55,948 nt of DNA from an uncultured Candidatus Peribacteria bacterium (GCA_964501605.1 CAZCTB010000065.1:1-55948), one strand, 5' to 3'. Counted from the first letter of the stretch, positions 6,329-36,837 are shown. A program made the numbers and translations. Notes: a model not told the origin generated them from the sequence alone.

Positions 6329-7156
6329 ATGATAAATGATATCAAAAAAATAAAAACTTCATGGTTAAATATTTTTATTGGATTTTGTGTTTTAACATTT
6401 GTCTTTATTATACAACAAAATTCTGCAAAAGCTGATACAATAATAGTAAAACCCCAATATTCTAGTAGTAGCATGACAGATTTTATAAGTCAAAAATCAT
6501 TAAATTTTTTGGATGAGAATATCAAAAAAGCTAAAATCAATTATCAAAACAATTTTGATATGAATTCAGATTATTCTTTTCAAAAATATATTTCTGATGA
6601 AAACTTATTGAATAATAAAAAATATAAACCATCAGATTTGGTTCAAATAGATACTGAATACATAGTAAATAGGGCTGGTAGACCATTTTTACGTCAACCT
6701 GCACAAATAGCGTTTGAAAAACTAGCTAAAAAATTTAATGAAGATTTAAAAAAAAACTTATATCTTGTTAGTGCCTATAGAACATATAGAGATCAAGCAA
6801 CACTTTTTGAATGATGATGTTCTTCCACTAGGTGTGCAAAAATATGATGAAGTGAGCATCAATTGTGATTAGCTGTAGATATTCATCTTGCTACAAAAAA
6901 TTGATATAATATTTTATGATGAGACAATTTAGATTGGTTGAATGGAAATGCGTATAAATATTGATTTATAAATACATATCGTAAATGAGCAAAAATAGAC
7001 TGAAAGATGAAAGAAGTTCGACATTGGAGATATGTTGGGATACCTTTGGCTACAGAGCTTTACAAAAGGGATATGAGTTTCGCAGAGTATTATAATACCA
7101 CTGTCATTCCGACCGAATACCGCAGTATTGCGGTAGTAGCGGAGGAATCCCTTTAA
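6329..7156 (+). CDS. Peptidase M15 / VanY-like D-alanyl-D-alanine carboxypeptidase with signal anchor
   Basis: SAYRTYRDQATLF, SEHQLGLAVDI, WLNGNAYKYGFINTY and EV-[CGA]-HWRYVG (family consensus EPWH.RYVG). The last ~17 codons and the stop lie inside a GTCATTCC...GGAATCC repeat copy. Confidence 0.85.
7103..7151. repeat. GTCATTC-family palindromic element, variant copy, forming the 3' end of the M15 peptidase CDS
   Basis: gtcattccgaccgaataccgcagtattgcggtagtagcggaggaatccc. Preceded by ataatacca-ct, as in the copy at 9909. Confidence 0.7.
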
Positions 7157-7237
7157 AGTGAATGCAAAAAAGATATTTCCCCATCATTATACTTAGTCGA
7201 GATGATAATTGTTGTTTATATTATAATTAAGTAAAAA

Positions 7238-7810
7238 ATGACAGACAAAGATTTACAAGACAAACTTGAACAAGCTGAAAAAGAAAATAAAAAAAAATCA
7301 AAATCAAAAAAAGAAAAAAAACTACAAGAAAAAATTGAAAAATTTCAAAAAGAATATGATGAACAGACAGAAATGCTCAAAAGAGCACAACATGATTACA
7401 TTAATCTTAAATTTGATTTTGATAGGTTTCAAAAACAAGTAGAAGAAAAAGAAAAAGAAAGTGAATTAAATTCATTAATTTCTAGTGTTAAAAAGTTTTT
7501 ACCATTTGTAGAAGATTTAAGAAAGTCTTTGGATAATATACCAAAGGATAAAAAATCAGAACCATTGGCTCAATGAGTACAGCTTGTTTATGACAATTTT
7601 TTGAAAACTCTAGAGTGAATGAATATAAAACAAATAGAAGCTGTATGATTGGAGCCAGACTCAGCATTACACGAGCCAGTTTCAGTCCAGCCAGTAGAGG
7701 ACAAAAAAATGAAATGAAAAATAGTACAAGAATTTGAAAGATGATTTGTTTATAAAAAAGATAATAAGCAAGTAGTGTTAAATACCTCAAAAGTAATAGT
7801 AGGTCAATAG
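7238..7810 (+). CDS. grpE: Nucleotide exchange factor GrpE
   Basis: K/E-rich coiled N-terminus, then LKRAQHDYINLKFDFDRFQKQ...FLPFVEDLRKSL...HEPVSVQP...VLNTSKVIVG. 190 aa. Confidence 0.88.
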
Positions 7811-7863
7811 TGTTTTGTTGTTATACGAAAAATAGAATAATCTAAAAATTAATATAATAAGAA

Positions 7864-7894
7864 AAAGGGCTGGAAATAATCCAGACCTTTTTTT
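7864..7894. terminator. Bidirectional hairpin terminator between convergent grpE and the 7893-8126 gene
   Basis: GGgCTGG-aaataat-CCAGaCC flanked by an A-run and a T-run. Confidence 0.65.
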
Positions 7895-8126
7895 AATTTT
7901 TTACTTGGAATAGTTCTCTTCCAAGTATTGTAAACAATATTCCAACACAACAAAAGAATATAATTTCTCCATATGTGTAGCCATTTTTGGACCAAGGTCC
8001 AATTAGTGTGTTTAAAATAAATCCAATTCCGGACAGCATTAGCAACGCTCCGGTTAATTTTGTTATAAACCATGCTAAACTATCACTAATATTAGTGATA
8101 GATTTTTGAATTTTCCTTTTTTTCAT
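7893..8126 (-). CDS. Small membrane protein (77 aa)
   Basis: Intact ORF with no TGA and two predicted hydrophobic helices (LAWFITKLTGALLMLSGIGFIL, IIFFCCVGILFTIL). Confidence 0.6.
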   Translation of the reverse strand: MKKRKIQKSITNISDSLAWFITKLTGALLMLSGIGFILNTLIGPWSKNGYTYGEIIFFCCVGILFTILGRELFQVKN

Positions 8127-8224
8127 ATTATTTTATTTTTGTTAATTTTTATTATAACAAATATTTGTATTAAGTCAAACAATATTTCACTTGAAAAAAT
8201 ATACTTTAAAAATACAAAAAAATT

Positions 8225-9904
8225 ATGGATCAGACAATAATAAATAATATACCAAATAAGCCATGAATATATCTTTTTAAAGACAAAAAAGACAATATTC
8301 TTTATATTTGAAAAGCAAAAAATCTCAAAAATAGAGTATCTCAATATTTCAATCCAAATTCAGTACGAAAACAAGATATGTTGAATAAGGCAGATACGGT
8401 AGATTTTTTTGTTGTAAAAACAGAATCTGAGGCTTTGTATTTGGAGGATAATTTAATTAAAAAAAACCAGCCACCATTCAACAATATGCTTAAAGGTTCA
8501 AATAGTTATGCTTATATAAAAATTACAAATGAAGATTTTCCACAAATATTTATCACTAGAAATAAAATCAAAGATTGATCAAAATATATTTGACCAAAAC
8601 ATAATACAATTGAACTCAAAAAATTCTTACAATATTTGAGATATATTATCAAACGAAGATGATGTAAAAAAACCCAATTTAATCAATGAAAAGTTTGTTC
8701 TGATTATCATTTTTGATTGTGTAATTGATGGTGTTTAGTTAATGCCCCGCTTATGAATGAGGGTCAGGGGGGGGCAAAAAAACTAAACCCACCTTCGCTA
8801 CGCTCTTCCTCCCTTCAAAAGGGAGGTACGTATGAAAGTGCGAAAAAAGAATATTCAGATATTATAAAACTAATAGAACAATTTTTCAGATGAAATACAA
8901 AACCAGTTGAAAAAGAGATAAAGCTCCAAATCCAAAAAGCGGTCAATGAAGAAAACTTTGAACGAGCGACTAGATTAAGAGATATTTATTTACAGATAGC
9001 AAATCTTACAGAAAAACAGACTGTAGTACTACCAAAGAGCATTTCATGATACATTTGCCAGATTAAAGAAATCTCAGGTTGGTTTGTTTATATTGTGTTA
9101 AATTTTTACGAATGAAAAATAATTGACGTAATTATCAACAAACAAAACAAAAATGATGGAGATGAAAATTCTGTACTATCGGTACTGGGTTCTGAGCTAT
9201 GAAATTTAGAAAAGATTGATTCAGATAATCATATTGTTTTAAAAAATCCAAAAGTTAAGTTAAACAAAACACAAACCAAAGAAATTTTATCTCTTATGGA
9301 TTGATTTATAGATTCGTATATTATCACACAATCATTTAAAGACGAAAATTTGTTAAATGATATTTTAAAAGACATTCAATCAAAATATAAGCTGAATAAT
9401 TTTCCATATCATATGGAGTGTGTAGATATTTCACATCTTTGATGATCACGAACTAGTGGTGGATTGTCATGATTTTTATGATGAATACCAAATTACAAGT
9501 TATATCGTAAATATAAAATTAATGCCAAAGCATCTAATGATTATGAGGCTTTGAAGGAAGTGATTACAAAAAGATTTAAAGACAAGGAAGACTTGCCAGA
9601 TTTATTTATTCTGGATTGATGAAAAGGTCAGTTGTGAATACTCAAAGATTTTTTACAAGAAAACTGGTTCAAAAAAATATTCGATAAAGTAGACTTTGTC
9701 TCTCTTGGTAAATGATCAGCTAGAAAAACATGATGAAAAATTAAATGAGAAAAAGAAAAAATATTCTATTTCGATTCAGAGATGAGAATTCAAAATATTG
9801 ATTTAAAATATGATCAATCAGATAAAACTATAGTAAAATTACGTGATGAAGCTCATAGATTTGCTAATTCTTACAGAAAAACTCAGATGAAGAAGTGACT
9901 ATAA
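8225..9904 (+). CDS. uvrC: Excinuclease ABC subunit C
   Basis: N-terminal GIY-YIG ([29 protein letters not shown]), UVR motif (ENFE.ATRLRDIY), and VDISHLGGS / LRDEAHRFANSYRK. Carries an in-frame GC-rich insert at 8744-8829. Confidence 0.9.
8744..8829. repeat. GC-run hairpin element inserted in frame in uvrC
   Basis: ccccgcttatgaatgagggtcaggggggggcaaaaaaactaaacccaccttcgctacgctcttcctcccttcaaaagggagg. Contains the hairpin CCTCCCTT-caaa-AGGGAGG. It is far more GC-rich than its flanks and interrupts the conserved C..G.C region. Confidence 0.75.
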
Positions 9905-9908
9905 TACT

Positions 9909-9975
9909 GTCATTCTGAGCGGAACAAGGTGAAGTCGAAGAATCTAGTGTTTGTATATACTATTTTAAAAACGCT
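9909..9975. repeat. GTCATTCTGAG-family element, left half only
   Basis: gtcattctgagcggaacaaggtgaagtcgaagaatctagtgtttgtatatacta matches the left arm and core of the 36726-36837 copy. No right arm is present. Confidence 0.75.
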
Positions 9976-10280
9976 ACCGCGGTAATGTTACTTTTGCCAC
10001 ATTGAGCCGCAAAAGTAACCAAAAAGTCCCTAGTTTAAAATTGCAGTCATACTTTAGTTTTGTAATATTGTGTACGAGTACGGAAAATTTCGCATAGGCT
10101 CAATTTTTAAATTATTATTATAATGTTTGTTGGGTAATTCTAATGAGCCTTACAAATGCAATCTTAAACTTTTAATTTGATACACCAAAAAGGTGTGATG
10201 TCAACACTTATCACTGTTTCGTGCGGTGGTTTTTTGATAATTCAAATTTTCTGAATATAATTAGATAGATTGATGATTTA

Positions 10281-11843
10281 GTGGTTAAAAAATCGATGAT
10301 ACAAAGAGAAAAATTTATAGCACTATTGATTGTATTGTTTGCATGGACTGCATTCCTTTTTAGTGATGCTATATTTTCTGCTAAAGAGGAAAATAAAAAC
10401 CCACCATCAAGTATTAAAAATTTAGTATTCGATACTTCACTTCAAAAGGGTGATACTTTAAATAATCATTCATCTGCTAGTGAGTTTGAATCACAAGTTG
10501 GAAAATTAGATACACAAAACGAATTGTCACAACTTACAAAAACAGTAAGTGAAAATTTAGAAAACTGAATAAATTCAGCAAAGATGAAAATAAAAGATAT
10601 AAATAATTGAATCAAGGATCTTGATTTGTTGGAAAAAATATATCAAAAAGACAAAAATCCAGATGTTCTCAAAATATTGTTACAAAATTTGGTAGAAGAG
10701 TATCAATTTGAAAAAGCAAAAACATATATATCAGATATAAATATATTTGATGACAAAATAATAGAAGCAAAAACATATATATATACTTATATTAATTCTC
10801 TATCTATAATAGACAACAATAGTATGGATAAATTTATGTCTTTTGTAGATCAAATGAGATACAAATCTTTAATTAGTTCAGATGACTATATTTTTTACCA
10901 ATGATTAGCCAAAATTTGGAAAAAAGATTATGAATGAGCAAGTATTTTATTCAAACAAATTAATTCACCAATATATACAAATTTTATATCACAAATAGAT
11001 AGTGCTATAGAAAAATTTAACAAACAAAAATGAGTACCTTGATATTATAAAGATTCTTTGATAGCCTTGACTGCTCTCAAAAATTGATATTTTTCTTTGG
11101 CTAACAAATTGGCTGTTAGTTCTGTATTGCAAAACTGAGAATATGTATTACCAAATCAGATATTGGCATATTCAAATTTTCTTACAAATAATCGAGAAAA
11201 ATCTATAGAAAATTTTTATGAATTAGTAGAGATAGATAGTGAAAATCAAGATAAGTATAATTTTTATATATGAGTATCTCACTATCGAGCAGGTCAATAT
11301 CAAGAATCTATTTGAATATTATCTAAACTTTTAAATAACTCTAAATATAAAACAGATTCTTATAGATATTTATTATTGAATTATAAAGCATTGGAAAATG
11401 AATCAAAAATGGTTCAAGTTCGACAGAAGTTATTATGACAAGACAATTTACAAGAGTCAGATTTTAAAACATACTATGATTATGTTTTTTATAGACCGTT
11501 TTCACAAGATTCAAAATATACAATTTATTCAAAACACAAACAACTTTCATATGATTTTGTAAGTATCTGTTATCAAGATTTTTGAGAAAAAAATGATACA
11601 TGTTTATATGGTGAGATTTGATTGGATGTAATAAATGAAAGTCGACATAGTGTCCAAAATTGACTACTTTATTTAGCAGAAAATTACCCACAATCACATA
11701 TATTTCAAGCATTATGAGATTATTACAAATCTCAAGGTTTAGATGATAAAGCAAAAACTTACTACTTAAAAGCAGTAAGTTTGAGTGACAATACTTCACA
11801 AAAAAATATAATTGAAAATAAAATTATTTCTGAGTTAGACTAA
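10281..11843 (+). CDS. Membrane-anchored helical-repeat (TPR-like) protein, hypothetical
   Basis: Two ORF pieces in one frame plus a TGA-joined remainder. N-terminal TM helix (FIALLIVLFAWTAFLF), then repeated Y/A/L-rich helical pairs. The GTG 10281 or ATG 10296 start is uncertain. Confidence 0.65.
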
Positions 11844-11853
11844 GCCGCGAGTT

Positions 11854-12663
11854 TTATATCTTTTCATTTTTTTCATTTTTTGTATCTAATTTTATTGCTT
11901 TAGTTTCTTCTCATTCTTTTGTGTTATTTGTTTTTTCTTTTTTATTGGATTTTTCTAATTCTTCTATATTTTTTTTTAATTCAATAATTTCTTCCTCTTT
12001 CTTTTTTAAATCATTGTCTCATTTTTTTGTGTCTTCCTCTTTCATTTTAATATTTTTCTTAGTTTCTTCTTTTTCAGATTTTTCTTTATCAATAGTTCTT
12101 TCTTCTTTTTTCTCATCATTTTTCTTTTCACTTTCTTTGCTATTTTCTTTTTCAGATTTTTCTTCTTTTGATATTTTTTTTATTTTTTTAGGTCATATAG
12201 ATTTTCATTTTTTAAACTGTAATTTTTCAAACCAATTATTTAATTTTAGTCATCTTGTATTTAAATGATTATAAGAAAAGTCAGATATTGGTTTTTTGGA
12301 AAAAACTCTACCAAAAGTTGATTTTCGTGCATTTTTTACAGTATTTACACCAGTATTCCATGTGTTTACTACACCATTTACTATAGGCTGTATCGTAGTT
12401 CTTACGGCTCATTCCAATGCAGTTCATCCTGCTATGATTGGACTTAGTGGTATATTCATTGCTTTATGATACCATTTACCATGGTTCCAAGCTCCCAGCA
12501 AAACATCTTTTACTCTTTTGGCTGTATCAGCAGCAATTTCGCATCACTCTTTTCACATTGTTTTTAAAGTAACAAACAAATCTGTAGCCGTTGTTACGGT
12601 TGTTCATCATAATCTAATTGGCATAGCGAGAGTATTTCAAGCTCTATTTATAGTATTTCACAT
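11854..12663 (-). CDS. Hypothetical protein with K/E-rich C-terminus (269 aa)
   Basis: Minus-strand ATG at 12663 to TAA at 11854, exactly 270 codons. The plus-strand F/S-rich ORF 11921-12268 is its antisense. Confidence 0.6.
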
Positions 12664-12745
12664 AATAAAAATTTAAATCTAAACACAACTATTATAAACA
12701 AAAAAAACAGATTGTCAAATTATTTAATATGTTATTTCACAAAAT

Positions 12746-12774
12746 TTGACAAATAAAAGTTTTTATACTATAAT
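12746..12774 (+). promoter_or_regulatory. Sigma-70-type promoter (TTGACA-17-TATAAT)
   Basis: ttgaca at 12746-12751, a 17-nt spacer, and tataat at 12769-12774. Nearly identical to the promoter at 17048. Confidence 0.7.
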
Positions 12775-12796
12775 ATATAAGAGAAATTTATTTATT

Positions 12797-13822
12797 ATGT
12801 ATTTTATAATGACTAATAAAGTAGCTGCAGACACATCAAAAGGCGTAAACAATTCTTCTAATAGTGAAGATAAGTTTTCGTTGTATCAATTGAAAAATAT
12901 GGATAACACAATAGAAAATAGATCTAAATTGTCTGAACATCCTGACGATGATTTAGAAAATATAAAAATGGAAGCTATAGATTCTGAAAATTATGAAGTT
13001 GCAGCAATTATTAGAGATACTTTGAATGACAAGAAAAATAAAATTCAAGAAGAAAATAATAAAGAATTCAAAGATAATCTAGAGACTAACAAAAAAGAAA
13101 ATAAAGAAGAGCAGCATAACGAGGTAGAAAAATTAAAAGCTCAACTTGAAGAAAAAGACAAAAAAATTGATTCTTTTGGTAAAAGATTAAAAGAAATAGA
13201 GGAAAAACTAGAAAAAAACAAATCTGAAAATACAGCAAAATTAGATGATTTATTGAAAGCAAAAAATTCTTGAGATACAGAAAAAGTAAAAAAACTTGAG
13301 GCAGAAATCAAAGAGCTTAAAGAAGATAAGGCGAATTGGAAAAAAGAAACTTTAAAATATCCAGGATGAGATTTAAGAACATTGAGAACTAAGCGAATTA
13401 AAGGATGAATTACATTCGATTCTTCTAAGACAGAAAAAGGAAGAAAATTAGAGATGAACCTAAATAAACTTTGATTAGTAAAAAATTTACGTTCTCGTAG
13501 AAAGCTAAATAAGACAATCAGAAAATTTAATGATATAGGTAATGATCCAAAAAAATGAATTATTTATATTATGTCCAAAGCAAACAAACGTCAATGATGA
13601 ATTGTTAGATCAGAGTTTAAAAAAATATGGAATACTTTAACTATTAGAGATGCAGACAAATTTGATGAAGTATTTAATAAGCAAAAAAAGAAATTTATTG
13701 ATGACTTGTTCGGCAAAATTTGAACTAATGCTGATACAAGAGATACAAAAATAAAAGAATCAATAACAAAAAGAATAGATTACTATCAAAAAGCTTATAA
13801 GAAAAAAATGATAACAGTTTAG
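12797..13822 (+). CDS. Coiled-coil hypothetical protein (341 aa)
   Basis: Frame continuous through TGA codons. E/K-rich heptad-like middle. The start was moved downstream of the promoter that the ORF track read as coding. Confidence 0.65.
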
Positions 13823-13874
13823 AAACGTTTCATTGTTGAAACGTTTAAACGCTTTATATTTAAATATTAAAAAA

Positions 13875-14159
13875 ATGAAAACACTAAAAGAGACAGTAGA
13901 CTATATACACAATTATATGACTGAATATGAAAAATGATGAGAAGTCATAGAAAAAGATGTATTATATGACATGATGGAAGAAGAATTGCTGGATACTGTA
14001 GAATGAGTTTTGACAGAAGAAGATATGAAAAATTGGGTGAATAGTAAAGATGATACATATTTGGACAAAATATTAAATGAAAGATTGGAAAATTATCCTG
14101 GTCTTTTGGAAGATATCAAAAACGATATTTTGAATGATTATGTTTTGGGTGAGGAATAG
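13875..14159 (+). CDS. Small acidic protein (94 aa)
   Basis: ATG to TAG, 95 codons with TGA as Gly. Similar in size and charge to the 21064-21372 product. Confidence 0.55.
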
Positions 14160-14180
14160 TTTTATTTATGTATAGCTGTT

Positions 14181-16862
14181 ATGATAAATTATGATTCTAC
14201 ATTAGATAAATTAAGAGATATTGATGGTAAGATAAATAATCTTAATAATTTAGATGAATTAAATAGTATAATATCTAGGAGAGTATGAGATTTATATTCA
14301 GTATTATCTAGTAATAACTTTTTTGTAAATGATGAAGTTTATAGGGAAATAGATAATTTAGAATCAAGGTTAAGTGTATGATGATCATTAGTTACGGAAG
14401 CTCAAACGGAGATATCAAGACTAGTAACAGAGAGAACAGCATTACCTACATGAGCAACATCAAACACAAGAAGAGCTGAGATATGAAGAGAAATTTGAAA
14501 GCTTTTACGTATTACATGATGAACAGAAGCTGCACCATGAGATTGATCTACAACCAGGATACAAGATAGACACAATGATTACAATAATATAAAAGTTGCT
14601 AAAGATAGTTTTAATATAAATAATACATTAACTGATTACAATCATACTTTATGAGTTGCTAGCACATATGCAAATTTAAATGCAGTAGGAAAATTTGCAT
14701 GCACACCAACAAATTGATTCCATTTTTTTGAAGATAATTGAAATAGAGTCAATGCATCTTCATGATCATATACATTTAAAATGAAATTAGATGACGGAAC
14801 TGAATGAGATGTAAAAGTAGAAGGTATATCTATAGTAGGTAATGATATACAAATAACAAATAATTTAAAATTTACACCATCAAATATTGATTATTCTAAA
14901 CCATTAGAAGTTATTATATGATGAGTATATGAAAATGTTGGTTGAAATTGAATAAATGTTATTCATACAAAAAAATTAAAAATAAATATAGATAATCCAG
15001 AATTCTTAGATGAAGAAGATGATCGTGAAGAAGAATTTGATAATTATAACAATTCTGGATCATGAAATAGGATATCTAATCACTTGTCTACTAGATACAG
15101 TTCTGATTTACATAAATTAGAAAGGAAGGCGCTGGAAAGTGCTATGAAAAACTGAGATTGACCAAAATATGATAAATTGACAGACGAACAAAAAGAACAA
15201 TTGTATCAACACATAAGAGGATTGCCGCATCCTTCTTTATGATGAAATTTTTTTGATACGTTAAATTCTTCTATGCATTTAGATAATTATGATTATTTTA
15301 AGTCTCGATTTACAGATGATGATAGAGATTGGAACAAAGACATTAAAAATATATCTTCAAAAAGAAAATACAATGATTTTATACATAATAATTTAGAATT
15401 AAAAAGTACTGAATATATAAGTACATCATTAGATGGGGCACTTACTAAATCTTTACCTATAAACAGATTTTTGAAATGAGAATTAACTAAGTTTTTAGAT
15501 AGAATAGATAGAAATAAACAAGACACTAATGTGCATAGTAGAATAGATTCAGATTTAGATAATGATGATCATAAGATGGATAAGTGACCGCGATCATTAT
15601 TGTATCCAAGAGATAAAAATTATATGAGATTTTTCTCAAATAAAACAATAAATTTGGAAAATCAAAAAGTTAAAATAAACACAAACACAGCGCCAGAAGA
15701 TTTAAATAATTTAGAACCAGTAAAATATAACTTACAATTGGATGTTAGTGGAAAAAATAGATTGAAAGCCACTATTAATATTGATTGAGAGAAAAAACCT
15801 ATTGTAATAAAAGCTTGAGATTCTTCATCTTTAGTTAGGAGAATAATGAAAAATTCCAGTATTTGTCAAGGTAAGGTAAGAGCTCACATAGGATTTAATG
15901 TATATAAGTCTATGATTCAAATGGCAAAAGACAGCGATATTAGCTTAAAATATCGTGATTCTTGAAATCATATAAATGAATTAGATATAGATGAAAAATG
16001 AAATATTGCATTATATGATATAGATGACTGGACTAATCGTGGTACAACAAATAAGAGATTAACTAATGTTGTTTTTGATCAGCAAATGTTTGAAAATACA
16101 AATGATTTTAATCAACCTTGATATAATTGAAGTTTAAGACAATGAATCGACGAATTATCTTATCATTTTAATTCTGCAATGAATGTAGTACATGATCAAT
16201 ATAGAAGCTGAATTAAAAGAAAATTTTTATGATTGATGAGTTCTCCTAGTAAGTCTAGGTTGCCAAGTTCTGTTTGGTTAAGTCCAATAAAAAAGCTTAT
16301 TAATATTCGTACAAATACTAATTTCGATTTTGATACAACAATTGATGTCTGAGGAAAAAGTATAAGTGTTTCATTTAAGAAAAACAAGTTTACCATAAAT
16401 ATGGATTGATTAAAAAAACCATTATCTGGTAAAGATTTAGGTAAATTACTGGAAAAAAGACAATGAAGAGTTAGAGTCTTTGATTGAATGGAAAGAGATA
16501 TAGTGGAGTGAGTTTATGTGTCTATGATAGAGAAACTTAGAACCAATTCAAAAATAGCTCGTAGTAATTTTTGAGTAATGGATGATGTTACACAAAATAT
16601 GTATATTTTAGATGATGATTGAAATTTTGGAATAATTTCTTCTGAAAAATTGGATACAGAATGAAATCCTATGCACAAAAAAATAAAAAAATGATATTGA
16701 GTTTTAAGTAAAGATAAAATTTCTCATATTTGATATGAAGTATTGGATGAAAAGGAGACAAAAGAACTTATGAAAAATCCATTTCTGATGCAAAGATTTG
16801 TAAAAGCCATGAATTCTAGAATGTGATTTTGAGAATCTATGAGAGCTTTATTTAATAAATAG
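14181..16862 (+). CDS. Large orphan protein (893 aa)
   Basis: I counted codons from 14181 into ORF pieces 15273 and 15600 in the same frame. No TAA/TAG until 16860. A terminator follows. Confidence 0.75.
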
Positions 16863-16882
16863 TTTTTTATAAAAATATCAAA

Positions 16883-16910
16883 AAATCCAACGATTTGCTT
16901 GGATTTTTTT
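16883..16910 (+). terminator. Rho-independent terminator
   Basis: AAATCCAA-cgatttgc-TTGGATTT plus a T-run. Confidence 0.7.
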
Positions 16911-17047
16911 AATTTTTTTGAATAGGCCAGGTATAAAAAATATTTTGCGATACAGAAAAAGTCTTCTAAAATTTGTAGATTTTTCTTTAAAAAGACGTTT
17001 TGTTAGTTTTTTGATAGAAATATGGATAAATTTTCATGTGTGAAAAT

Positions 17048-17076
17048 TTGACAAAAAAAGTTTTTTCGATTATAAT
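17048..17076 (+). promoter_or_regulatory. Sigma-70-type promoter (TTGACA-17-TATAAT)
   Basis: ttgaca at 17048-17053, a 17-nt spacer, and tataat at 17071-17076. Confidence 0.7.
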
Positions 17077-17121
17077 TATGATATAAATTTTAAATTGTAT
17101 TTTAATTATTATATTTTTCAA

Positions 17122-21480: not shown

Positions 21481-22212
21481 ATGATATACAACCCATATGA
21501 TCACTACTTCAACAAAGCAAAACAGCAATGATACAAAGCTCGTAGTGCTTTCAAACTAGAAGAAATTCAAAATAAATTTAAGCTTATCGACAAAAACACT
21601 AAAACAGTTTTGGATATATGATGTGCTCCAGGTAGCTGGATGCAATACACCTCTTGATTACTTACTTCTATGAAAGTTCAAGATTTTCAAATTATTTGAT
21701 TTGATATCAAGGAAAGTACAGTAAATTTGCCAAACGTATATACATATGTACAAGATGTTACAGATGTTGAAAAGATAGAGAAAATATTGAAGTCTCATCA
21801 AATTGAATCATATTGTCATTCTGAGCAAAGCGAAGAATCTATTAATCATAAAATGGATTCTTCACTACATTCAGAATGACAAGTTAATGTTAATTTAAAG
21901 TCACAAGTCGAATTTAATTCAAAGTTACAAAAAGGAGTAGATTTTATCCAGTCTGATATGGCTCCAGATACTATCGGAAACAAATCTATTGACGCTATGC
22001 GTTCTATAGGATTGTTGGAAGATACTTTGCAAATATACAAAAAATATCTAAAGCCAGACTGAAGGTTTGCTATTAAGATATTTATGTGACCTGGATTTGA
22101 AGAGTTTGTTTCCAGTCTCAAAAAAGAGTTTTGACCAAAAAATATCAAGATATTCAAACCCAAAGCTTGTCGTAGTATCTCCAAAGAAACATACGTGCTA
22201 AAAATTAGCTAA
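21481..22212 (+). CDS. rlmE: 23S rRNA 2'-O-ribose methyltransferase RlmE/FtsJ, carrying an in-frame palindromic insert
   Basis: YKARSAFKLEEI, VLDIGCAPGSWMQY, FIQSDMAPDTIGN, GRFAIKIFMGPGF and KPKACRSISKETYVL. A 66-bp element lies at 21815-21880. Confidence 0.85.
21815..21880. repeat. GTCATTCTGAG...CAGAATGAC palindromic element (66 bp, 22 codons) inside rlmE
   Basis: gtcattctgagcaaagcgaagaatc-tattaatcataaaatg-gattcttcactacattcagaatgac, read in frame as CHSEQSEESINHKMDSSLHSEG. Confidence 0.85.
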
Positions 22213-22240: not shown

Positions 22241-22318
22241 ACCCCAACCCCTCTTTGAGAAAGAGGGGCTTGCAAATAGATTGTTTCCCCTCTTTATCAA
22301 AGAGGGGACTAAGGGATG
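22241..22318. repeat. Twin GC-run hairpins (CCCCTCTTT-N3-AAAGAGGGG) x2, intergenic
   Basis: cccctctttgagaaagagggg and cccctctttatcaaagagggg lie about 30 nt apart between rlmE and ychF. Confidence 0.8.
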
Positions 22319-24689: not shown

Positions 24690-24714
24690 GTAATAATATA
24701 AAATACAGCCCTAA

Positions 24715-24746
24715 AAAATCACAGACCGGAAAGCCTGTGATTTTTT
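24715..24746 (+). terminator. Rho-independent terminator
   Basis: AATCACAG-accggaaagc-CTGTGATT plus a T-run. Confidence 0.7.
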
Positions 24747-28100: not shown

Positions 28101-28334
28101 TCTTTTACATGCTTGTTTTACTATAGCAAAAGCTTCTGGTAATATACCATTTAAAGTTTCTCACTTTTCTTGAATTCTTTTTTTAAATTCTTTAGTTTTT
28201 TCTTTTATTTTATCATCAGAAAGTTTATCATAATTTTTATAAAAATGATTAATTTCTCTTACAGTTATTTCTAGTTTTGCAATCTCTTTGGCAGTATAAT
28301 CTCCACCAAAAACTTTTTGAATTCGTTCTAACAT
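25137..28334 (-). CDS. secA: Preprotein translocase ATPase SecA
   Basis: [101 protein letters not shown] and [13 protein letters not shown]. 1066 codons; I checked the C-terminal 240 codons triplet by triplet. Confidence 0.93.
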
Positions 28335-28552
28335 TACAATATTTAAATTAATACTTAAAATATATTTTTTACAATATTTTCTTATAAGAAAATAAGAAAA
28401 TAAAGCAAGAAATAAAAATCAAATATATAACAACAAAAGCTTATTATATAGGATTTAATGTTGTTATTTCAATTTGCTTTTCTATCAAACATTGTTATAT
28501 AAAAGTATGATGAATGTTTTGTTGAAAATTTAAATATTGTATACTCAAATAA

Positions 28553-29071
28553 ATGAAAAGATTAAAAACAAACGCTATGATATTTGTGGTAGCAGTACTA
28601 TTGTCTATAGTGCTTTTTTATACAAGTAAAAATCCGGATCTATTTTCTGCAAGTATTCTTTCATTGCAAGATGCAGAAACTATCAAAGCAAAAAGCCGAG
28701 ATGTATGATACAAAAACGAATGAAATATATTAGATACATTTTTGTCAGACAAACTTCAAAATATCAGTAATATAACTTTTTCAATTATATATGATCAAGA
28801 CAACACGAATTTAAAGTTAGAAAAATTTGATTGCCAAACAAATTATGAAATATTATCAAGTGAAGAAGGTTCAATTGTAATTAAATTTACAAATTTTTCT
28901 GGTATAGATTATGATTATCAGCAAAGCTTGTTTGAACTACCTTTCAACTGACAGATGTCTAAGGTTTTGATTAGTGAAGGTATGGCAAATTTATTCAATT
29001 GAGAAAATAAAAATTTATCAATTTGATTATTAAATAGTGATGATGTAGATTATCACCAAACTTTTAATTAA
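28553..29071 (+). CDS. Hypothetical secreted or membrane-anchored protein (172 aa)
   Basis: N-terminal hydrophobic anchor (AMIFVVAVLLSIVLF). ORF piece 28742 is in frame. Confidence 0.55.
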
Positions 29072-29084
29072 GAAATATTAAAAA

Positions 29085-30701
29085 ATGAAAAAGCTTTACC
29101 CAAGGTTTTTATTAAGATTATCTTTGTTTTTTGCTTTATTTATTTGATTCACATTTGCAGAAGACCCAGATGCTTTTTTGGTTCAAGTAGAACCAAGTAG
29201 TTTTGGTGTTTCTGAATCTATAGATGTTACAATTAGCGCAGTTAAGAGTTGAATAATAGTAAAGGATTATATATGAGATGTATTTATAGAAGTAGAATGA
29301 TTAATGCCAGATGATTATGTTGTACCTAGTGATGGCTTGTATTCTTTTCTTATACAAGATCAATGAATAAAGTTATTTTCAAAATGATTAGAAATAAAAA
29401 AACCTGGTACATACAATCTTAAAGTATCAGATATTATAGATGAAACAGTTATGTGAGAGACTACGGTTATCGTTGGTAACGCATGATGAAACTCAAATTT
29501 AAAAGAAGTTGATATAACATCACCAACTGATGGTAGCACAGAAAGGAGTTCTGCAACCAATATTATTTGATCTAGTTCAAATTTACCAAATTCTCCAGTA
29601 GAAATATATTTGAACAACGAATCAGTAGCTAATTGACACACCGATTCTCAATGAAATTTTAATGTTTATATTCAGTGATTACAAGAATGACAAAATCAAA
29701 TACAAGCTAAAATTACAGATATCAGTGATATTGTTTTGTGAGAATCTGATGTTATTGTTTTAAATTATGAATCATTTTCCGATGGTATATACAATTCAAT
29801 AGAAATTTTACCATCCAATAATATAAAACAGTGAGACAAGGTCTCCTTCAACATTTATACTTCAGAAGAAGTTACTTCTTGAGAGTTGGAGTTTAGCGAC
29901 AATCAAAAATTTCCTTTAGATAGATTGTCTCCTTGAGTATTTAATAAAGATGTGGTTTTGACTTCACAGGGTAGTATAGATATTTCTTTGTCTCTTGTTG
30001 TTGATGGTAATAGTGAATATTATGAAGATGTAGCAAATATATTTGTTCAACAAAATGATTCCATATCAAATATTAGATTCCACTCTGTATGAGTAGATGG
30101 TACTTCTGTAAATGTTTCTTGGGATCCTATTTGAGATGCTCCAAAATATAGAATATCTTATGGTACAGATAGAAATAGTTTACAAAAAACTGTAGATGTA
30201 AACTCTACACAAGTTTTAGTAGAAAATATACAATCAAACACTGTTTACTATTTTCAGATATTACCACTAGATGAATGACTTCATGCTTCTTGAGAGCCAT
30301 CAGAAGTGGTTGAATATAACCCAAAAGAAGTTTATTCTTCTTGTGTTGTGAAATGAATTATAGTTACATCAGAAAAAATAGGAGATAAATATTATCTCAC
30401 GCGAGATGATGTTGAAAATGTTACAAAATATGAAGTATACAAATCAGAGCGAGAAGATATGTCTGATATGAAAAAAGTATGAGAGACAACAGAAACTAGG
30501 TTTGAATATAATTTTAATAAATATGCTGAAAGTGATCAATATGCTTATTATCAAGTTGAGGCTATATGTTCAGATTGATCAAGTGTAACAATAGATGAGG
30601 CAAAAGAAGTTAAAGTATGACCATTTGAAAATACTTTATTAGTTATAATTATAGCTTTTTTCTTTTATAGTATATATAGGCTTTACAAAACAGCAGATTA
30701 A
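29085..30701 (+). CDS. Cell-surface protein with Ig-like and fibronectin type III-like repeats and a C-terminal TM anchor
   Basis: Signal peptide (LSLFFALFIGFTFA), beta-rich repeats, two FN3-like units (SVNVSWDPIGDAPKYRISYG; YYLT-[CGA]-DDVENVTKYEVYKSE), and a C-terminal LLVIIIAFFFYSIY. Confidence 0.72.
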
Positions 30702-30738
30702 AAAATTATAAATTTATCTTATAGTATTATTTTTTATT

Positions 30739-33636
30739 ATGAATAAATTCCCTAAAAAATATAATTATCAAAACACAAAATTAATAAAAGAAAATTGAAA
30801 TAAATGGAAAAACATTGATTCTACACTATTTCCAGCTGATAAAAAATTACATCCTGGTTGTATATTTTCTTTGTACTATCAAGATTTGTTTAAAGAACTA
30901 TATAATTTACAAAATAAGTATTTTAATCCAAACTTATCTTTTTGACTTTCTTCAGATTTTTATTCTAAATTAAATAATCCAAATATTAATTTGAAACACA
31001 TTGAATCTCAGGTTTTTGGTCAAATTAAACAAAACAAAAAATTTGTAAATAAGCTTTGACTTTGATTCAACTTAGATTGAGATATGTTCGTTTATTCAGA
31101 AAAATTTAATCGTTATATAAGAAAGGTTTTTGTTGAACTTTATAATAAATGATCTATTTCTCTTAAAAAAGAAACAATTAATCGAAGTAAGGATTATCAA
31201 ACAAACTTATTCAAAAATAATATAAATGTTAAAGAACAAAAAACAAAAGAATATATATTAAAATATTTCATAGATTCAAAAGGACATGCATTAACTGTCC
31301 CCACAACTAATCTAGAAACTATATTTGCAGATGTTTGAGTAGCTGTAAACCCACAAGATAAAAGATACAAGAAATTAATATGACAAAGTGTGATTGTCCC
31401 CATAACAAATAAAATTATACCAATAATTTGAGATGAGAGTATTGATTCATTTAAATGATCTTGAGTTTTTAGAATAACGCCTGGTCATGATCAGTATTGA
31501 TTAGAGCTTGCACAAAAACATAATTTACCCACAAATATATATGCTATAGATGTTCATGGTAAATTTACAAAAAACGCATGAGAATTTGCTTGAAAGTCTG
31601 TGGAAGATTTTTTTGATAATATAGTAAAATACATAGATGATATATGAAATTTAGAGTCTAAAAACAACGTTTTAGTAAAACAAAATTTTGATGTACGTAC
31701 ATGAGAGAAGTTAGATAGTATCACATTGGATCAGCGAAGTATTAATTATTCTTATTCTTTAGATTATCTTTTACAAAAATTTTCAGATCAAAGAATATCT
31801 TGTTTACCATTAGATTCACAAGAAAATATAATATCTTTATTGGAAGAAAAAAAATCAGTAAATATTTCTAATAAGTCCACAAAATGAGTTTTAGTTCCTA
31901 TAGTAAACTCACACAAATGAGAAACTTTCCCAATAAATGACGATATAGTTCTAGATAGATACAAGATTTCAAAAACAAAAAGAACTTTAACTCTAACTTT
32001 GATTATATTAAATTTGATTTTAGACAATCATTTATCTTGCTCTTTTACTATTGAAGAACTAATTGACGCTCTTTTTTCTGTGGATTTATCTTGAAAAAAA
32101 ACAAAAATAGAAAGATATATAGACATATATAAAACTGAATCAAAGATCAAAACAGAATATAAAAAATGATTAAAGGAAATAGAAAAATTGGTGTGAAAAC
32201 TAAAAAAAGATAGTGAAAATATCAAAATAATTTTAGATTTATTAAAAAATTCTTTTGCTATAAAACTTGATTGAAATAATATCTATTTAGATTTTTCATC
32301 TATATTTGCCAAAAGAGATATATTAGAGCTACAAAGAGAGGATGGGTTTAACAAATCATTTATAGATAGTGTGCGATTTTTGTACAAAAATAATTTATCA
32401 AAAGATTTTTGATCTTATGAAAATATAAAAAATAAAAAATGATTATTTTTTACATGATTAGATGAAAAAGATTTTGTTTTAAATACAATGCTTTTATCGT
32501 TGGAATATTCAAAAAATTTATTATTTTCTTCATTGTTTTTTCATCCTATATTGATTGATATAAATCAAAAAAAGATAGTAAATAATAATTCTAGATTTTT
32601 GATAAAAGATTTTTGAGAAAATCTTAGCATATATTGACCAGATGTTATGAGGCTAGTTCTATTATTGTGAGAAAAAGAATTAAATAACACAAAATTTGAT
32701 ACATATACAGCACAACAATATAGCAATTTGTTAAATAAAATTTGGAATGCATATAGGTATGTTTATAAAAAACATATAGAATGAAAAAAAGAAATTAATA
32801 TAAAAAAAATAATAAAAAAAATAAAATTTGATATTACAAGCTATGATCTTCGAATAATACATGATATAAAGACATTAATAGATGATTTTGAATATCAGTT
32901 CTGAGAAAACAAAATTTTACCACTTTGAAAAAAGGTTATTAATTTTATAAAAGAAAATCTTTGTGATAAATATTTAGAATCTACAAAACTATATTCAGAC
33001 AACAACACTCCAGAAGTTATGATGTTGTCATTTGCCATTTTACTAAAGCTTGCAAAACCATATATTCCTTTTTTTATATCTCATTTAGAGTCTATATTGA
33101 AGATAAACCGAGAAGGTTATGATGTTTTTGAATTTAAAAACTTTGAATTAAAAGAAAAAAATTATAAAATAAATTTGTTAATGGATATAGTAGATAAACT
33201 AAAGAACATAAAATTAAAAATCTGATTAAAAAAGCATCAACATATAGACATATTTGTACAGGCTAATCCTGATTTTTTGGATTTTTTAATACAGAATGAA
33301 GATTTATTAAAATCACTTGTTAAAATATGAGATATTAGATGTGTTAGATTACATGAGGATGTACCAAGTTGATATCAAATAGACAATGTGATAAATATAA
33401 ATATATGAGCAAAAAGAATTTCAGAACAAATAGAAATAAAAAAAGATATTTTGTTAGATTTAAAAGAAGAGTATGAAAACAAAAAAGAACATATACAACA
33501 TCTAAAGTCTTTAATGGCATCTATTTCTCAATCAGGTAATGAAGATGCTTTATCTCAAAAGAAAAAAGAGATACAAAACTTACAAAAAGAAATAGATGAT
33601 TTGGATTTTGAAATTAGTAAGCTTAAAGCAAAGTAA
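30739..33636 (+). CDS. Valyl-tRNA synthetase homologue with degenerate HIGH/KMSKS signatures (965 aa)
   Basis: ValRS editing-domain block: [64 protein letters not shown]. DQ-[CGA]-S matches QWF. Has the C-terminal coiled coil typical of ValRS. All triplets scanned, no TAA/TAG. Confidence 0.75.
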
Positions 33637-33658
33637 AAATCATAGTTTTATTTTTATT

Positions 33659-33755
33659 GGTAACGAAGAATCTAGTTCTTTGATATATTATATTTCTATA
33701 TATAATAGATTCTTCGCAGGCCTGTCTATAACGGACTGACAGGTTTAGAATGATA
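33659..33755. repeat. GTCATTCTGAG-family element, divergent full-length copy
   Basis: Core cgaagaatctag...tagattcttcgcagg shared with the 36726 and 9909 copies. The right arm (ttagaatgata) is interrupted by the hairpin cctgtc-tataacggac-tgacagg. Confidence 0.7.
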
Positions 33756-33783
33756 ATTTAATAGTTAAGTTCTTAATATAAAA

Positions 33784-33816
33784 ACCCCACTCTCTTGGAA
33801 TGGGGCCATATTTTTT
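33784..33816. terminator. Bidirectional terminator hairpin
   Basis: CCCCA-ctctcttggaa-TGGGG with T-runs on both strands, between convergent genes. Confidence 0.6.
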
Positions 33817-33848
33817 AGTTTTTGTTGGCTAGATTAATATATTTTTAA

Positions 33849-34748
33849 TTATTCACTAGCTTTTAAATTTTCTATTTCTTCTATAAATTTTTCTGGAGGA
33901 TAAGCACCTGGTATAAGTACAAATTTACCAGTCACTTTATCTATTATTACATTACCTGGAGTACCTGAAACATTAAATAATTGTCTTCCTTCATTAGATT
34001 GACTATTTACTTCTTCAGTGTATCTTCCTTCTTCAATACATTCTTTCATATCTTTTTTATTTAATCAAACTTCATCTGCAATATCTAGTAATGAGTCTAC
34101 GTCTATATTACCTTCGTATGCAAAGGTTTCTTCAATAAGATTGAAATATTCTTTTTTTGTACCCAACTCTCATGCACAAACAATTCATTCTCATAATTTT
34201 GCAGCTGCACCGTGTACAATAAAATTTCTAAAAACAGCATTCACTTCTGTAGGATATTCTTCCAATACTGAATTTATAGTACCTTGATCAGATTGTGTTT
34301 TACAGTAGGGACACAAGAATTCTGAGTATTCTAAAATAGTAAATCTAGCGTTTTCATCACCATGTATTGGTGTTGAGGCTTTTATTTCTTCCAATTTTAC
34401 TATCAAGTCATTATTTTTTTCTCAATCTTCTAACGGTATATCATCATTTTCATTTTCTTCCAATATTTCTACATCTCACAAAGGATCTTGATCTGTGTTT
34501 TCATTCATTTCCATTTCTGCCATATTAATCTGAGCTAATGCTTGATCAATAGCAGCACCTTGTTGTTCTTTGTAAGAATCAGAATTGTAAAGTTCTTTTA
34601 CTAATTCCATATTTTCTACACCACCAACTTTTATTGTTTCCAAATACAAAGCACTATCTTTTTTGAAAAAAGAAAGTAAATTTAGAATCAACATTATCAA
34701 TAATATTGCAATTACTGCAATATAATAGTTTTTTTTGTTTTCTATCAT
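33849..34748 (-). CDS. DsbA-family thiol:disulfide oxidoreductase with N-terminal membrane anchor
   Basis: Three ORF pieces in one frame; both junctions checked and contain TGA only. FTILEYSEFLCPYCKTQ (CxxC), VSGTPGNVII, and the TM helix YYIAVIAILLIMLILNLL. Confidence 0.85.
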
Positions 34749-34778
34749 TTCTTTAAATAATTATTAATTAAAATTTTA

Positions 34779-35147
34779 TTATTGTGCTATAAATTGTTGT
34801 ATAGCAGCAGTTTGTTGTTCCTTATAAACATCTGATTCATAAAGATCCATTACTTTTTCAAAATTTTCTTGTCATCCAACTTTCATTTTTTCTAATTCTA
34901 ATGCAGAACCTTGTTTTGTAAAGTTTAATATACCAAAAACTAGGTTTAACAACAACAATACAACAAAGATAATTGTCATTATAGACATACAATTTTTTCA
35001 TTTTTTTGTTTTTTTTGTTTCTACAATTACATTTTTTTTAGGACTTGTAGTTTTTTTAGTAGCAACACTTTTTGTTGCTGTTTTTTTCTTTGCTACTGGT
35101 TTTTTAGTATTAGTAGCAGTTTTTTTTGTGGTTTTTTTTACTGGCAT
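34779..35147 (-). CDS. Small membrane protein (122 aa) paralogous to the N-terminal module of the DsbA-like gene
   Basis: K/T-rich N-terminus, a TM helix, then LELEKMKVGGQENFEKVMDLYESDVYKEQQTAAIQQFIAQ, compared with YLETIKVGGVENMELVKELYNSDSYKEQQGAAIDQALAQ in the neighbour. Confidence 0.6.
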
Positions 35148-35311
35148 AATGAAATTTTAAAAAATATAAAATTTATTTACATACTAACTTATATAATTAA
35201 CAATTTATATATATAAATCAAACAAATCTTGTTTTATGTATGGTGTTTTTGTTTGACAAAACAAATAAAAACAAACAAACCACTTAGCTAAAATAGATAT
35301 AATTATATAGT

Positions 35312-36640
35312 TTATTTTTTGACAAAAAGTTCACTAAATTTTGTTTTATTATTTTTATACAATCTACTTAAATATCCAGACAATAAACCAAATGGTATAA
35401 AAAATAAATAATTTACCATACTATCCTCAAATACATGTAGAAATAGTCCAATGAATAGTAATAAACTTCGTCACATATATAATCTTTGCCAATGTAATAA
35501 TGCCATTTCTTCTTCTGCAGATCTATTTCATTTGTCAAATTCTAATTTGATATTTTTAAATATTAATAATATTTGAAATATTACTATTGCCCAAATTATA
35601 AATCATACTGTACCAATATCTAACATTATTTGCATAAAATAATTTTCTGGCAACATGTTTCATTCATGATGTATTGCAGGTCATGATGTTCATAATCAAT
35701 GTCATAGTGGGTTGTTTATTATTTCTCAAATATATCATAATTTAGCAGTTACATGTCCTATTGTGGATTCATATTTCAATAAACTCAGTCAGATTATTCA
35801 CAATATTAATCAAACTAATATTCATACAGAAATTTTCTTATTTTTTTTAATTCGATTTTTTGTTAACAATACAAATATCAAAACCATACCAATTATAGCT
35901 GCTCTAGATAGAGTAAGCGCAATTGCAAGTATTCGCAATAATACAAACAAAATATTTAAGTTTTTGAAAGGATTTTTAATTATGTTTGTAATTTTTTTTA
36001 TTCAATTTCATCGCCATAAAAGTATTAATGGTAAAAATGCTACTAATAAATATCCATAATTGTTTGGTCCAGAAAATAATCATTGCCATCTAGTTGTTCA
36101 TTCAAATCCTGTTAGATAGTAAATTGGAGGATTAGCTCCAAAATAAAAATCATCAAATTTTCCATATCCTATGTTCATAAATATTTCTGGTTTTATTATT
36201 TTCATAATTTGCCAAAGAAAACCAAACAATACAATTCATATCAAAAAATACTGAAACCAGTTTATTTGTTTCTTGTTTAGCTTTTTCAATCATACAAATC
36301 ATACAAAACTTGCAGTCAAAAATATTAGCAAATAGAAAAATCAATATTTTATACCTATCATCATGTTGCTAATAGATTGTCATGCTAGCAAAGATATTCA
36401 TAAAGAAAATAGTATTAATACCACAAATCGTATTCGTACATTTTTCCATTTTTTCAAACAATCTTTTACTTTTTTTAAGTTTCATACAAAAGCTGCCAAC
36501 ACAAAAATCAGCCACAACAAATCTCTTATCAAAGATATAATTATTTGTGATTCTCATCAAAGTATTCCATATCACACTACAGTTACGATTATATGATAGA
36601 GTGCTATTAGTCACAAAAATCCTCACAAAAACTTTTGCAT
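35312..36640 (-). CDS. O-antigen ligase / Wzy_C-family polytopic membrane protein
   Basis: GLFSGPNNYGYLLVAFLPLIL, LTLSRAAIIGMVL, GHGLGTSGPA and ENYFMQIMLDIGTVGFI. I scanned all 443 codons and found no TAA/TAG. The ORF-track pieces in this region are off-frame artefacts. Confidence 0.82.
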
Positions 36641-36725
36641 ATAACTTGCTTGAAAAAGATATAAAAACAAATATAACAATTTTATATATACTATGTTATA
36701 ATGTACAGTTTTAAATTGCATCTGT

Positions 36726-36837
36726 GTCATTGCGAGTTGACTGTCATTCTGAGTGGAACGTAGTGGAATCGAAGAATCTAGTGTTTTGATATACTACGTT
36801 TCTATTTGTAATGGATTCTTCGCAGGCTCAGAATGAC
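36726..36837. repeat. GTCATTCTGAG-family palindromic element, full-length copy (MITE-like)
   Basis: gtcattgcgag..gtcattctgagtggaacgtagtggaatcgaagaatctagtg....ggattcttcgcaggctcagaatgac. Terminal inverted repeats lie in a divergent promoter region. Confidence 0.85.

Follow-up and report, generated by a model that had tools for sequence, protein, structure and literature searches.

INTRODUCTION

Repetitive extragenic palindromic sequences (REPs) that lie in frame inside genes, where they are tolerated in loops, have been documented, and among the Rickettsia palindromic elements (RPEs), RPE-4 and RPE-6 are identical with CGTC-tagged REPs (PMC3733652, PMC6006769). Another interspersed hairpin repeat, the 36-nt Bpu (consensus AAGGTTATCCCTTTCCTGAGCGTAGCGAAGGGAAGG), forms a high-copy repeat in the mitochondria of Cycas and Ginkgo (PMC8297867). 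Here we describe a dispersed family of palindromic repeats in the contig CAZCTB010000065.1 (GCA_964501605.1, deposited as an uncultured Candidatus Peribacteria bacterium), which was analysed over its entire 55,948 nt (~27% G+C) and is called the window throughout. Copies of the family stand between genes and also inside the reading frames of two of them, the methyltransferase gene rlmE and a VanY/M15 peptidase gene.

Our preferred reading, which we hold with somewhat more confidence than doubt, is that these copies are self-folding arms akin to REPs and to REP doublets forming hairpins (REPINs), that rlmE and the peptidase gene received them by genic insertion, and that the arms are handled in trans as single-stranded DNA, most likely by a Y1 enzyme. 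Loci of other genomes and contigs are designated below by L numbers.

RESULTS

Self-folding arms in one contig

The family is genuine, with six intact arms at four loci of the window besides one degenerate copy (Table 1). A scan that required the constant bases and a 5-bp complementary stem, with at most one mismatch, found six arms in the window and 0.3 in shuffles, which bears out the dispersed palindromic family that an earlier note had drawn from the sequence at five loci, at or near the positions first proposed. With the same tolerance, GTCATTCTGAG occurs five times (0.89 expected), and the inner box GAAGAATCTAGTG occurs 12 times (2.0 expected). In addition, a repeat finder matched 33655-33721 with 36761-36827 at 84% identity (family D9) and 9906-9962 with 36740-36796 at 86% identity (family D12).

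Table 1. Positions of repeat copies, host genes and the diversity-generating retroelement (DGR) in the window
Feature	Position	Strand	Remarks
VanY/M15 peptidase gene	6329-7156	+	Pfam VanY E = 6e-16, residues 121-237
Single arm at M15 gene end	7103-7149	+	subtype GTCATTCCGA..GGAGGAATC
Single arm, uvrC 3' side	9909-9944	+	starts 5 nt past uvrC stop (9904)
rlmE (FtsJ family)	21481-22212	+	intact, 243 aa
Doublet within rlmE	21815-21880		66 nt; left arm 21815-21839 (+), right arm 21856-21880 (-)
Rest of rlmE insertion	21881-21936	+	encodes QVNVNLKSQVEFNSKLQKG
Degenerate copy	33659-33755		between convergent genes
Solo terminal box GTCATTGCGAG	36726-36736	+	directly upstream of doublet 36743-36837
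Complete doublet, REPIN-like	36743-36837		95 nt; between divergent genes
Left arm of intergenic doublet	36743-36778	+	
Right arm of intergenic doublet	36814-36837	-	
Arms by scan	7103, 9909, 21815, 21880(-), 36743, 36837(-)		
DGR target gene	38093-38974		variable repeat 38870-967
DGR Avd-like gene	39091-39429		Pfam bAvd
DGR reverse transcriptase	39449-40666		RVT_1
DGR template repeat	40770-40867		

The boundaries of several copies differ from those first drawn. What had been taken as one full-length element at 36726-36837 is the 95-nt doublet preceded by an extra solo box; folded as single-stranded DNA, this doublet gives z = -4.8 on the + strand and -4.0 on the - strand. The copy between convergent genes, also described as full length, is without the left terminal box, and its right box has decayed (TTTAGAATGAT); its inner boxes CGAAGAATC and GATTCTTCG are intact, it holds an additional hairpin (CCTGTC..GACAGG), and it folds with z = -4.5 and -4.7. 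The copy behind uvrC does start 5 nt after the stop codon, as had been stated; its extent, given as a left half reaching 9975, shrinks to a single arm, and the loop sequence that it has in common with the intergenic doublet runs on to ~9962.

The first ATG of the minus-strand open reading frame (ORF) at 35312-36730 comes from the CAT of the solo box. The box AATGAC includes an ATG, as seen in this ORF and in rsmH of L132 (about 4986-5010), and arms can therefore lead ORF calling to apparent start codons and extended N termini. Downstream of the uvrC arm, the non-coding segment 9975-10296, which reaches towards the next gene, is well conserved in L129 and, in part, also in L128; it includes a hairpin (GTTACTTTTGC..GCAAAAGTAAC), and an Rfam search of the segment gave no match.

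Structure and covariation of the arm

The arm is a hairpin that reads GTC, a 5-bp stem, GA, an inner hairpin, GA, the stem complement and C. The inner hairpin is a mini-hairpin of the GCGNAGC type or a longer variable hairpin, so that arm length ranges over about 25-60 nt, and arms stand singly or as inverted doublets whose arms can also pair together. Among the 148 matches listed that were read for anatomy, all from loci of the GTDB scan described below, inverted partners were common and solo arms were common too; the segment between GAG and (C)GAAG was CGNAGC in 56 of the 148 and otherwise a longer perfect hairpin of arbitrary sequence. Within one element, a left stem ATTCT/AGAAT may be accompanied by a right stem ATCCT/AGGAT, ACCCT/AGGGT, ATGCT/AGCAT or ACTCT/AGAGT. 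Because both arms often differ in stem and yet each is self-complementary, the conserved unit is the arm, not end-to-end pairing. Hence, the definition of the element by terminal inverted repeats, from which the earlier note started, gives way to a doublet of self-folding hairpins with covariation within the arms.

Complementary stem triplets were found in 53 of 68 arms that had not been pre-selected by the search pattern, where 1/64 would be expected, and they represent seven pair types. Moreover, in 20 arms of 25 nt counted against the structure ...(((((..((...))..)))))., 98.6% of cells were paired and compensatory changes occurred at three of seven pairs; 0 of 500 shuffles reached this value, and slid controls were paired at 23-46%. 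The arm behind uvrC has orthologues in L129 and L128, and the stem ATTTT/AAAAT of L128 differs from ATTCT/AGAAT of the window by a compensatory double change. In these alignments, compensatory changes maintain the arm hairpin both across phyla and between orthologous copies. A reading of the arm as a hammerhead-like or k-turn RNA was rejected, as the arm has neither the CUGAUGA core nor the 3-nt bulge.

This anatomy bears on whether the family could be a classical MITE (miniature inverted-repeat transposable element), derived by deletion from a DDE-type insertion sequence (IS), recognised as double-stranded DNA by its terminal inverted repeats and moved by cut-and-paste. Full copies of 66-95 nt do carry terminal inverted repeats of 10-11 bp and fold as long hairpins. 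However, solo arms are common (7103, 9909 and many among the 148 matches), the arms of one element may differ in stem (ATTCT/AGAAT with ATCCT/AGGAT), each self-complementary, neither of the two complete copies shows a target-site duplication (flanks TATT/AAGT and GACT/CCTA), and no IS or transposase bounded by such ends was seen beside 240 arm loci. A MITE origin is therefore very improbable in our judgement.

GCGNAGC is an extraordinarily stable DNA mini-hairpin (Tm 76.5 °C), and such mini-hairpins are present at single-strand initiation sites recognised by primase, in the phage G4 and ssiA origins (PMC13037366). The GCGNAGC core of the arm thus points toward a single-stranded DNA role, without proving one.

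An old insertion in rlmE, read in frame

The names of the RlmE and M15 homologues place the host in Candidatus Absconditabacterales (SR1). ORFs of at least 100 aa in the window total 12 kb under translation table 11 and 77 kb with TAA and TAG as sole stops (all six frames counted, overlaps included), and TGA codons match conserved Gly positions in the alignment, for instance in DIGCAPGSW of RlmE. This confirms that TGA is recoded as a sense codon for Gly (code 25) in the window, and the suggestion of a recoded genome holds.

RlmE (Pfam FtsJ E = 2e-39; PDB matches 1EIZ and 6JP6) keeps the catalytic K25, D159, K199 and E236, which are invariant in the orthologue alignment. The doublet in its gene folds with z = -6.4 and spans codons 112-133; with TGA as Gly, reading from codon 112 (nt 21814) gives CHSEQSEESINHKMDSSLHSEG. 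In-frame read-through of this 66-nt copy had been proposed correctly, together with an insertion of 22 codons; the latter figure does not stand, as the full insertion comes to 42 codons against empty alleles. In the remaining part (21881-21936), the first ~19 nt resemble, in decayed form, a second mini-palindrome, GTTCATTGAAAATGAC, that the orthologues L001 and L007 have, on a comparison of the DNA by eye together with inference.

The reading frame used is hydrophilic, HSEQSEES...DSSLHSE followed by TGA (pattern HSE..SEES...DSS..SEG). Under the standard code there is a stop inside the right terminal box and one of the six frames is open, the hydrophobic VILSKAKNLL...; under code 25 three of the six element frames are open, the hydrophilic one included. 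As the used frame ends in TGA, it is open solely because TGA is Gly here.

Twenty-five relatives were compared, and the length of the RlmE loop varies among them. Five lineages have the element at the same codon, after I-x-P-Y/C (the window, L001, L006, L007 and L212), and the interiors of these copies differ by in-frame indels. The frame is kept in all five variants and TAA and TAG are avoided, which argues for translation over removal. Empty RlmE reads IKQ/VDFI in Gracilibacteria, Peribacteria, other SR1 and the two closest relatives (P0002/P0007; loci L004 and L005). Since the peptide is absent from outgroups and nearest relatives, the sequence is an insertion; orthologues with the peptide are confined to an Absconditabacterales sub-clade, in line with the view of the earlier note that it was inserted and not ancestral. 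That the peptide is ancestral and palindromic by chance, or rlmE a pseudogene, is hardly credible: the peptide does recur in several RlmE orthologues, but the rlmE DNA has the same boxes as the intergenic copies, the inserted segment is modelled as disordered (see below), and the ORF is intact with its catalytic tetrad conserved.

Interior loop sequence is common to the window and L001 copies of rlmE (CTATTAATCATAAAATGG vs CTATTAAACATAAATTGG) and is not found in the other copies of the window. Hence, the rlmE copies are orthologous and go back to a single old insertion, which some lineages have since lost or deleted; the presence of the insertion is patchy on a neighbour-joining tree. Independent insertion at this site in each lineage was considered and is less likely, given the shared interior loop. 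By these comparisons, the rlmE copy is old and vertically inherited, with no recent hop, and dating the insertion by RlmE orthologues, as had been advised, gave this answer. In L210, the same loop is occupied by a different palindrome, CCCCCTTGGTGAGGGGG.

Among the five orthologues, identity is 96.2% in the terminal boxes and 66.7% at the synonymous third positions of codons in the flanks, where nucleotides as a whole agree at 79.6%. The boxes thus change far less than synonymous sites, and some constraint or conversion acts on the DNA or RNA itself.

An AlphaFold (AF2) model of RlmE has a mean predicted local distance difference test score (pLDDT) of 78 and a predicted template modelling (TM) score, pTM, of 0.77; it was made from the database version of the protein, in which TGA codons appear as Trp, and its confidence may be slightly reduced by this. 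The model is confident outside residues 114-149, and it superposes on FtsJ 1EIZ (TM 0.85 by target length) and on MRM2. Residues 114-149, which follow helix 96-105 and precede strand 153-158, have pLDDT <50 and no secondary structure; in the alignments to E. coli FtsJ and yeast Trm7, residues 106-152 are not part of the aligned segments. The model therefore predicts that the insertion lies in a disordered loop. The insert joins the protein at the beginning of the strand that has the catalytic D159 at its other end, a position that, for a Rossmann fold, we take to be on the side away from the active site.

A repeat as the tail of a peptidase

The arm 7103-7149 (GTCATTCCGAC..GCGGAGGAATC) encodes the last 17 codons of the VanY/M15 gene, giving the tail VIPTEYRSIAVVAEES(L). 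That these codons come from the repeat had been recognised; the stop codon had been counted as part of the copy, and it is found at 7154-7156, 5 nt past the arm. Close relatives end in ...EYYxTTVIPT(K/E)VEESL and the window in ...TTVIPTEYRSIAVVAEESL, each directly before the stop, and more distant proteins stop ~5 residues after EYY. In L129, the arm DNA reads GTCATTCCGAC-CAAAGT-GGAGGAATC; in the window the arm is 21 nt longer, and this extra segment holds the perfect 7-bp hairpin TACCGCA-GTAT-TGCGGTA, a variable inner hairpin of the type found across phyla. The fold of the window arm matches the arm model exactly (z = -5.6). The aligned termini show that one arm has been recruited as the C-terminal tail of this peptidase.

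Distribution in bacteria and viral contigs

The 25-nt motif, searched as GTCATTCTGAG-N(3-33)-GAAGAATC in GTDB with one genome per species, was found without mismatch at no fewer than 120 loci spread over many phyla, including Chloroflexota, Acidobacteriota, Bacteroidota, Nitrospirota, Verrucomicrobiota, Firmicutes, Campylobacterota and Omnitrophota, further groups related to Cyanobacteria, and several lineages within the candidate phyla radiation (CPR). The same scan of IMG/VR contigs gave at least 120 loci. The repeat had been thought unusual for a CPR genome; these scans show instead an arm family that is widespread in bacteria and viral contigs and no CPR peculiarity.

At the gathering score, neither the window nor any of 14 loci that hold canonical elements matched an Rfam family, and at an E-value threshold two elements gave just sub-threshold matches to generic hairpins (miRNA precursors). 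Literature searched by DNA boxes and encoded peptides returned primers or noise, except for Bpu of Cycas, and held no description of the family. The repeat family is thus one for which no description was found in the literature searched, and the type of event, in-frame genic insertion, is already known. Candidate genic copies in L132, L133, L191 and L208 were not counted, as real coding sequence could not be shown there; they may be ambiguities of start codon or genetic code.

A candidate enzyme and its rivals

We suggest that the arms would act as folded single-stranded DNA and be recognised by an enzyme acting in trans, the likeliest candidate being a Y1 HUH protein like the REP-associated tyrosine transposases (RAYTs), such as is encoded in the syntenic relative L129. 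This enzyme would spread or excise arms without target-site duplication, and genic copies would survive solely when insertion keeps the frame and falls in a loop or tail that tolerates it. The doublet in the RlmE loop, for its part, is an old insertion and is translated through.

As mobilising enzyme, the RAYT-like Y1 gene of relatives may offer a lead, and a weak one. In L129 it lies at 1924-2484 (-), ~2 kb upstream of the thioredoxin gene, which is the first gene of the window, and encodes a Y1/HUH protein of 186 aa that matches PF01797, with NF047646 'REP-associated tyrosine transposase' as best NCBIfam family (E = 8e-12) and TnpA-REP 4ER8 as sole PDB match (E = 0.023). Three arms stand within 150 nt of the 3' end of this gene (1775-1912), and arms on the 3' side of a RAYT-like gene were seen in L129, L130 and L134 only. 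Across Absconditabacteria and Gracilibacteria the protein family is conserved, and 72 homologues were found.

Several observations weigh against handling by such an enzyme. The NF047646 score of the L129 protein is 45 bits, below the cut-off of 80; in the closest RAYT-like clade a Cys aligns with the catalytic Tyr115 of E. coli TnpA-REP, and in some members the HUH motif is degenerate, its histidines lost. The window has no RAYT-like gene, and a search of ORFs with hidden Markov models gave one weak Y1 match in ~2 Mb around 240 arm-bearing loci (the GTDB and IMG/VR loci among the matches listed). Arms flank few of 80 metagenomic RAYT-like loci, most of which have another palindrome family or nothing, and arms are no denser near RAYT-like genes (~0.065 per kb) than in the window (~0.107 per kb). 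The 5' tag of the arm is GTC(A), neither GT[AG]G nor CGTC, and its motif is conserved over phyla, while REPs are described as species-specific. The window copies examined all have orthologues in relatives and hence give no direct sign of recent movement, and the hairpin may act in DNA or in RNA.

Arms pile up, in the manner of bacterial interspersed mosaic elements, at L190 4950-5690 and L187 4620-5145, 1.2-1.5 kb downstream of RAYT-like genes on metagenomic contigs; their stem sub-families are ATTTC/GAAAT, ATCTC/GAGAT and ATTCT/AGAAT, and L190 has at least 11 arms of three sub-families within ~700 nt. Palindromes of another kind, related to the second family described below, stand after RAYT-like genes in L131-L133 and L136, and one is in the rlmE loop of L210.

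The conservation of the boxes well beyond the synonymous rate, and of orthologous copies with compensatory change, would also suit a structural element serving the host, either in stabilisation or termination at mRNA 3' ends or as a single-stranded DNA signal that excludes single-strand binding protein or directs priming, with the genic copies as by-products. Copies directly after uvrC and between convergent genes fit this, as do the initiation sites with GCGNAGC hairpins that primase recognises (PMC13037366) and the mRNA stabilisation and transcription termination reported for REPs (PMC6006769). However, a terminator or priming signal has no obvious use inside rlmE or a peptidase ORF, doublets are symmetric on both strands, copies are patchy among close relatives (L004 and L005 are without the rlmE copy), sub-families are piled in clusters (L190) in a way that resembles proliferation, and the mini-hairpin core is often degenerate in the AT-rich genome of the window (e.g. 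GCAAAGC, ATGTAGT). We consider a host-serving role unlikely.

The neighbourhood of the arms offers a further alternative, namely that they bordered, or served as targets for, mobile cassettes of small free-standing GIY-YIG nucleases and stayed behind, as footprints or recognition sites, when the gene was lost. Small ORFs of this type are bracketed by arms in L037 and L187, an arm follows one by 42 nt in L012, and the window itself encodes a homologous small GIY-YIG protein at 46537-46782. This origin is nevertheless quite improbable, as there are just three such genes in the ~2 Mb around arms, one of them 5.8 kb from its arm, no arm stands beside the GIY-YIG gene of the window, and self-folding, covarying arms are unlike GIY-YIG homing sites. 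Clustering of the ORFs within 400 nt of arms at 120 GTDB loci among the matches listed gave no recurrent family; with no recurrent neighbour, one weak Y1 match and three GIY-YIG genes, no partner gene can be inferred by adjacency. The GIY-YIG gene of the window encodes 81 aa, and its 3' end overlaps tRNA-Met (46772-46847).

Other features of the window

A second palindromic family, CCCC(T)C..N..GGGG, is found at 37294-37321, 8745-8840, 22242-22307 and 33785-33805. It is in frame inside a GT2 glycosyltransferase (KTPLKKGGRGGG) and inside uvrC (..NPPSLRSSSLQKGG..), and intergenic just 3' of rlmE and near the degenerate copy 33659-33755. In addition, a DGR occupies 38093-40867, in which 15 of the 16 differences between template repeat and variable repeat are at adenines of the template.

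DISCUSSION

If the family is indeed undescribed, it would be a very widely distributed structured repeat of bacteria and phage-like contigs, and its defined fold and invariant bases would be a handle for finding the enzyme of the arm. The rlmE copy can be seen as a dated natural experiment, in which an insertion has been carried through considerable divergence (RlmE ~75-80% identical) with its ends frozen and its interior drifting by in-frame indels. The change of code has a consequence of its own, as a palindromic element whose TGA would terminate a gene in the standard code turns into a harmless hydrophilic loop under code 25. In annotation, arms create spurious starts, tails and 'hypothetical' peptides (VILSEAK, HSERSEES, LRFAQND) in many genomes.

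A wider and more tentative possibility is that the arm represents an unnamed class of single-stranded DNA hairpins that crosses phyla, and possibly domains if Bpu is related. Its constant bases would be read by a conserved trans-acting enzyme and would be under selection at the nucleotide level even in essential genes, and the change of TGA to Gly would have opened a hydrophilic frame and so widened the range of genes that can be colonised.

Relation to described repeats

Bacterial MITEs such as Correia elements and the QMITEs of Coxiella resemble the present repeat in being short and non-autonomous, with inverted ends and fusions to ORFs that alter protein termini. They differ in that our arms fold individually, with no target-site duplication seen and no parent IS found.

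Bpu shares with the arms an identical 14-nt core, TGAGCGTAGCGAAG, with complementary stem strands on its two sides (CCTTTCCT / AGGGAAGG) in arm geometry (PMC8297867). However, it is organellar and without the GTC...C foot, has a longer stem, a Bpu10I site and AAGG terminal direct repeats, which bacterial arms do not have, and no doublets are reported for it. The resemblance may reflect convergence on the GCGNAGC mini-hairpin instead of common descent.

In behaviour, the repeat is close to RPEs, as the earlier note had pointed out: it is in frame and translated in conserved genes of a small genome, as in intact rlmE and the C-terminal tail of the M15 peptidase, it leaves the fold undisturbed, and it is inherited by descendant lineages. 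RPEs are 100-150 bp long and belong to one genus, whereas elements made of the present arms have 25-95 nt and are not lineage-specific; the host here belongs to Absconditabacterales, outside the Rickettsia lineage, with just two solid genic copies (rlmE and M15), and read-through depends on a reassigned stop codon. As to behaviour, the analogy with RPEs is apt; by structure, the element belongs with REPs and REPINs.

Like a REP, the arm is an imperfect palindrome that forms a hairpin, within the 20-65-nt criterion, with conserved unpaired foot bases and covarying stems; arms occur singly, as inverted doublets (36743-36837, 21815-21880) and in clusters (L190), without target-site duplication, and some relatives have a RAYT-like gene with arms in its flank. 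In contrast to REPs, the foot is an invariant GTC followed by the stem base A, with no GTAG, GTGG or CGTC in the alignment, and the constant bases are conserved over many phyla and viral contigs, against the species-specificity described for REPs. Moreover, the association of arms with RAYTs is weak, the nearest RAYT-like proteins having Cys for the catalytic Tyr, and copy number is modest, with six arms in one contig of 56 kb; for REPs, a high copy number of >100 per genome is described. Because in-frame genic REPs have already been published, the phenomenon itself is not new. What differs from published REPs is the GTC tag, the constant bases across phyla and the read-through by way of a reassigned stop codon.

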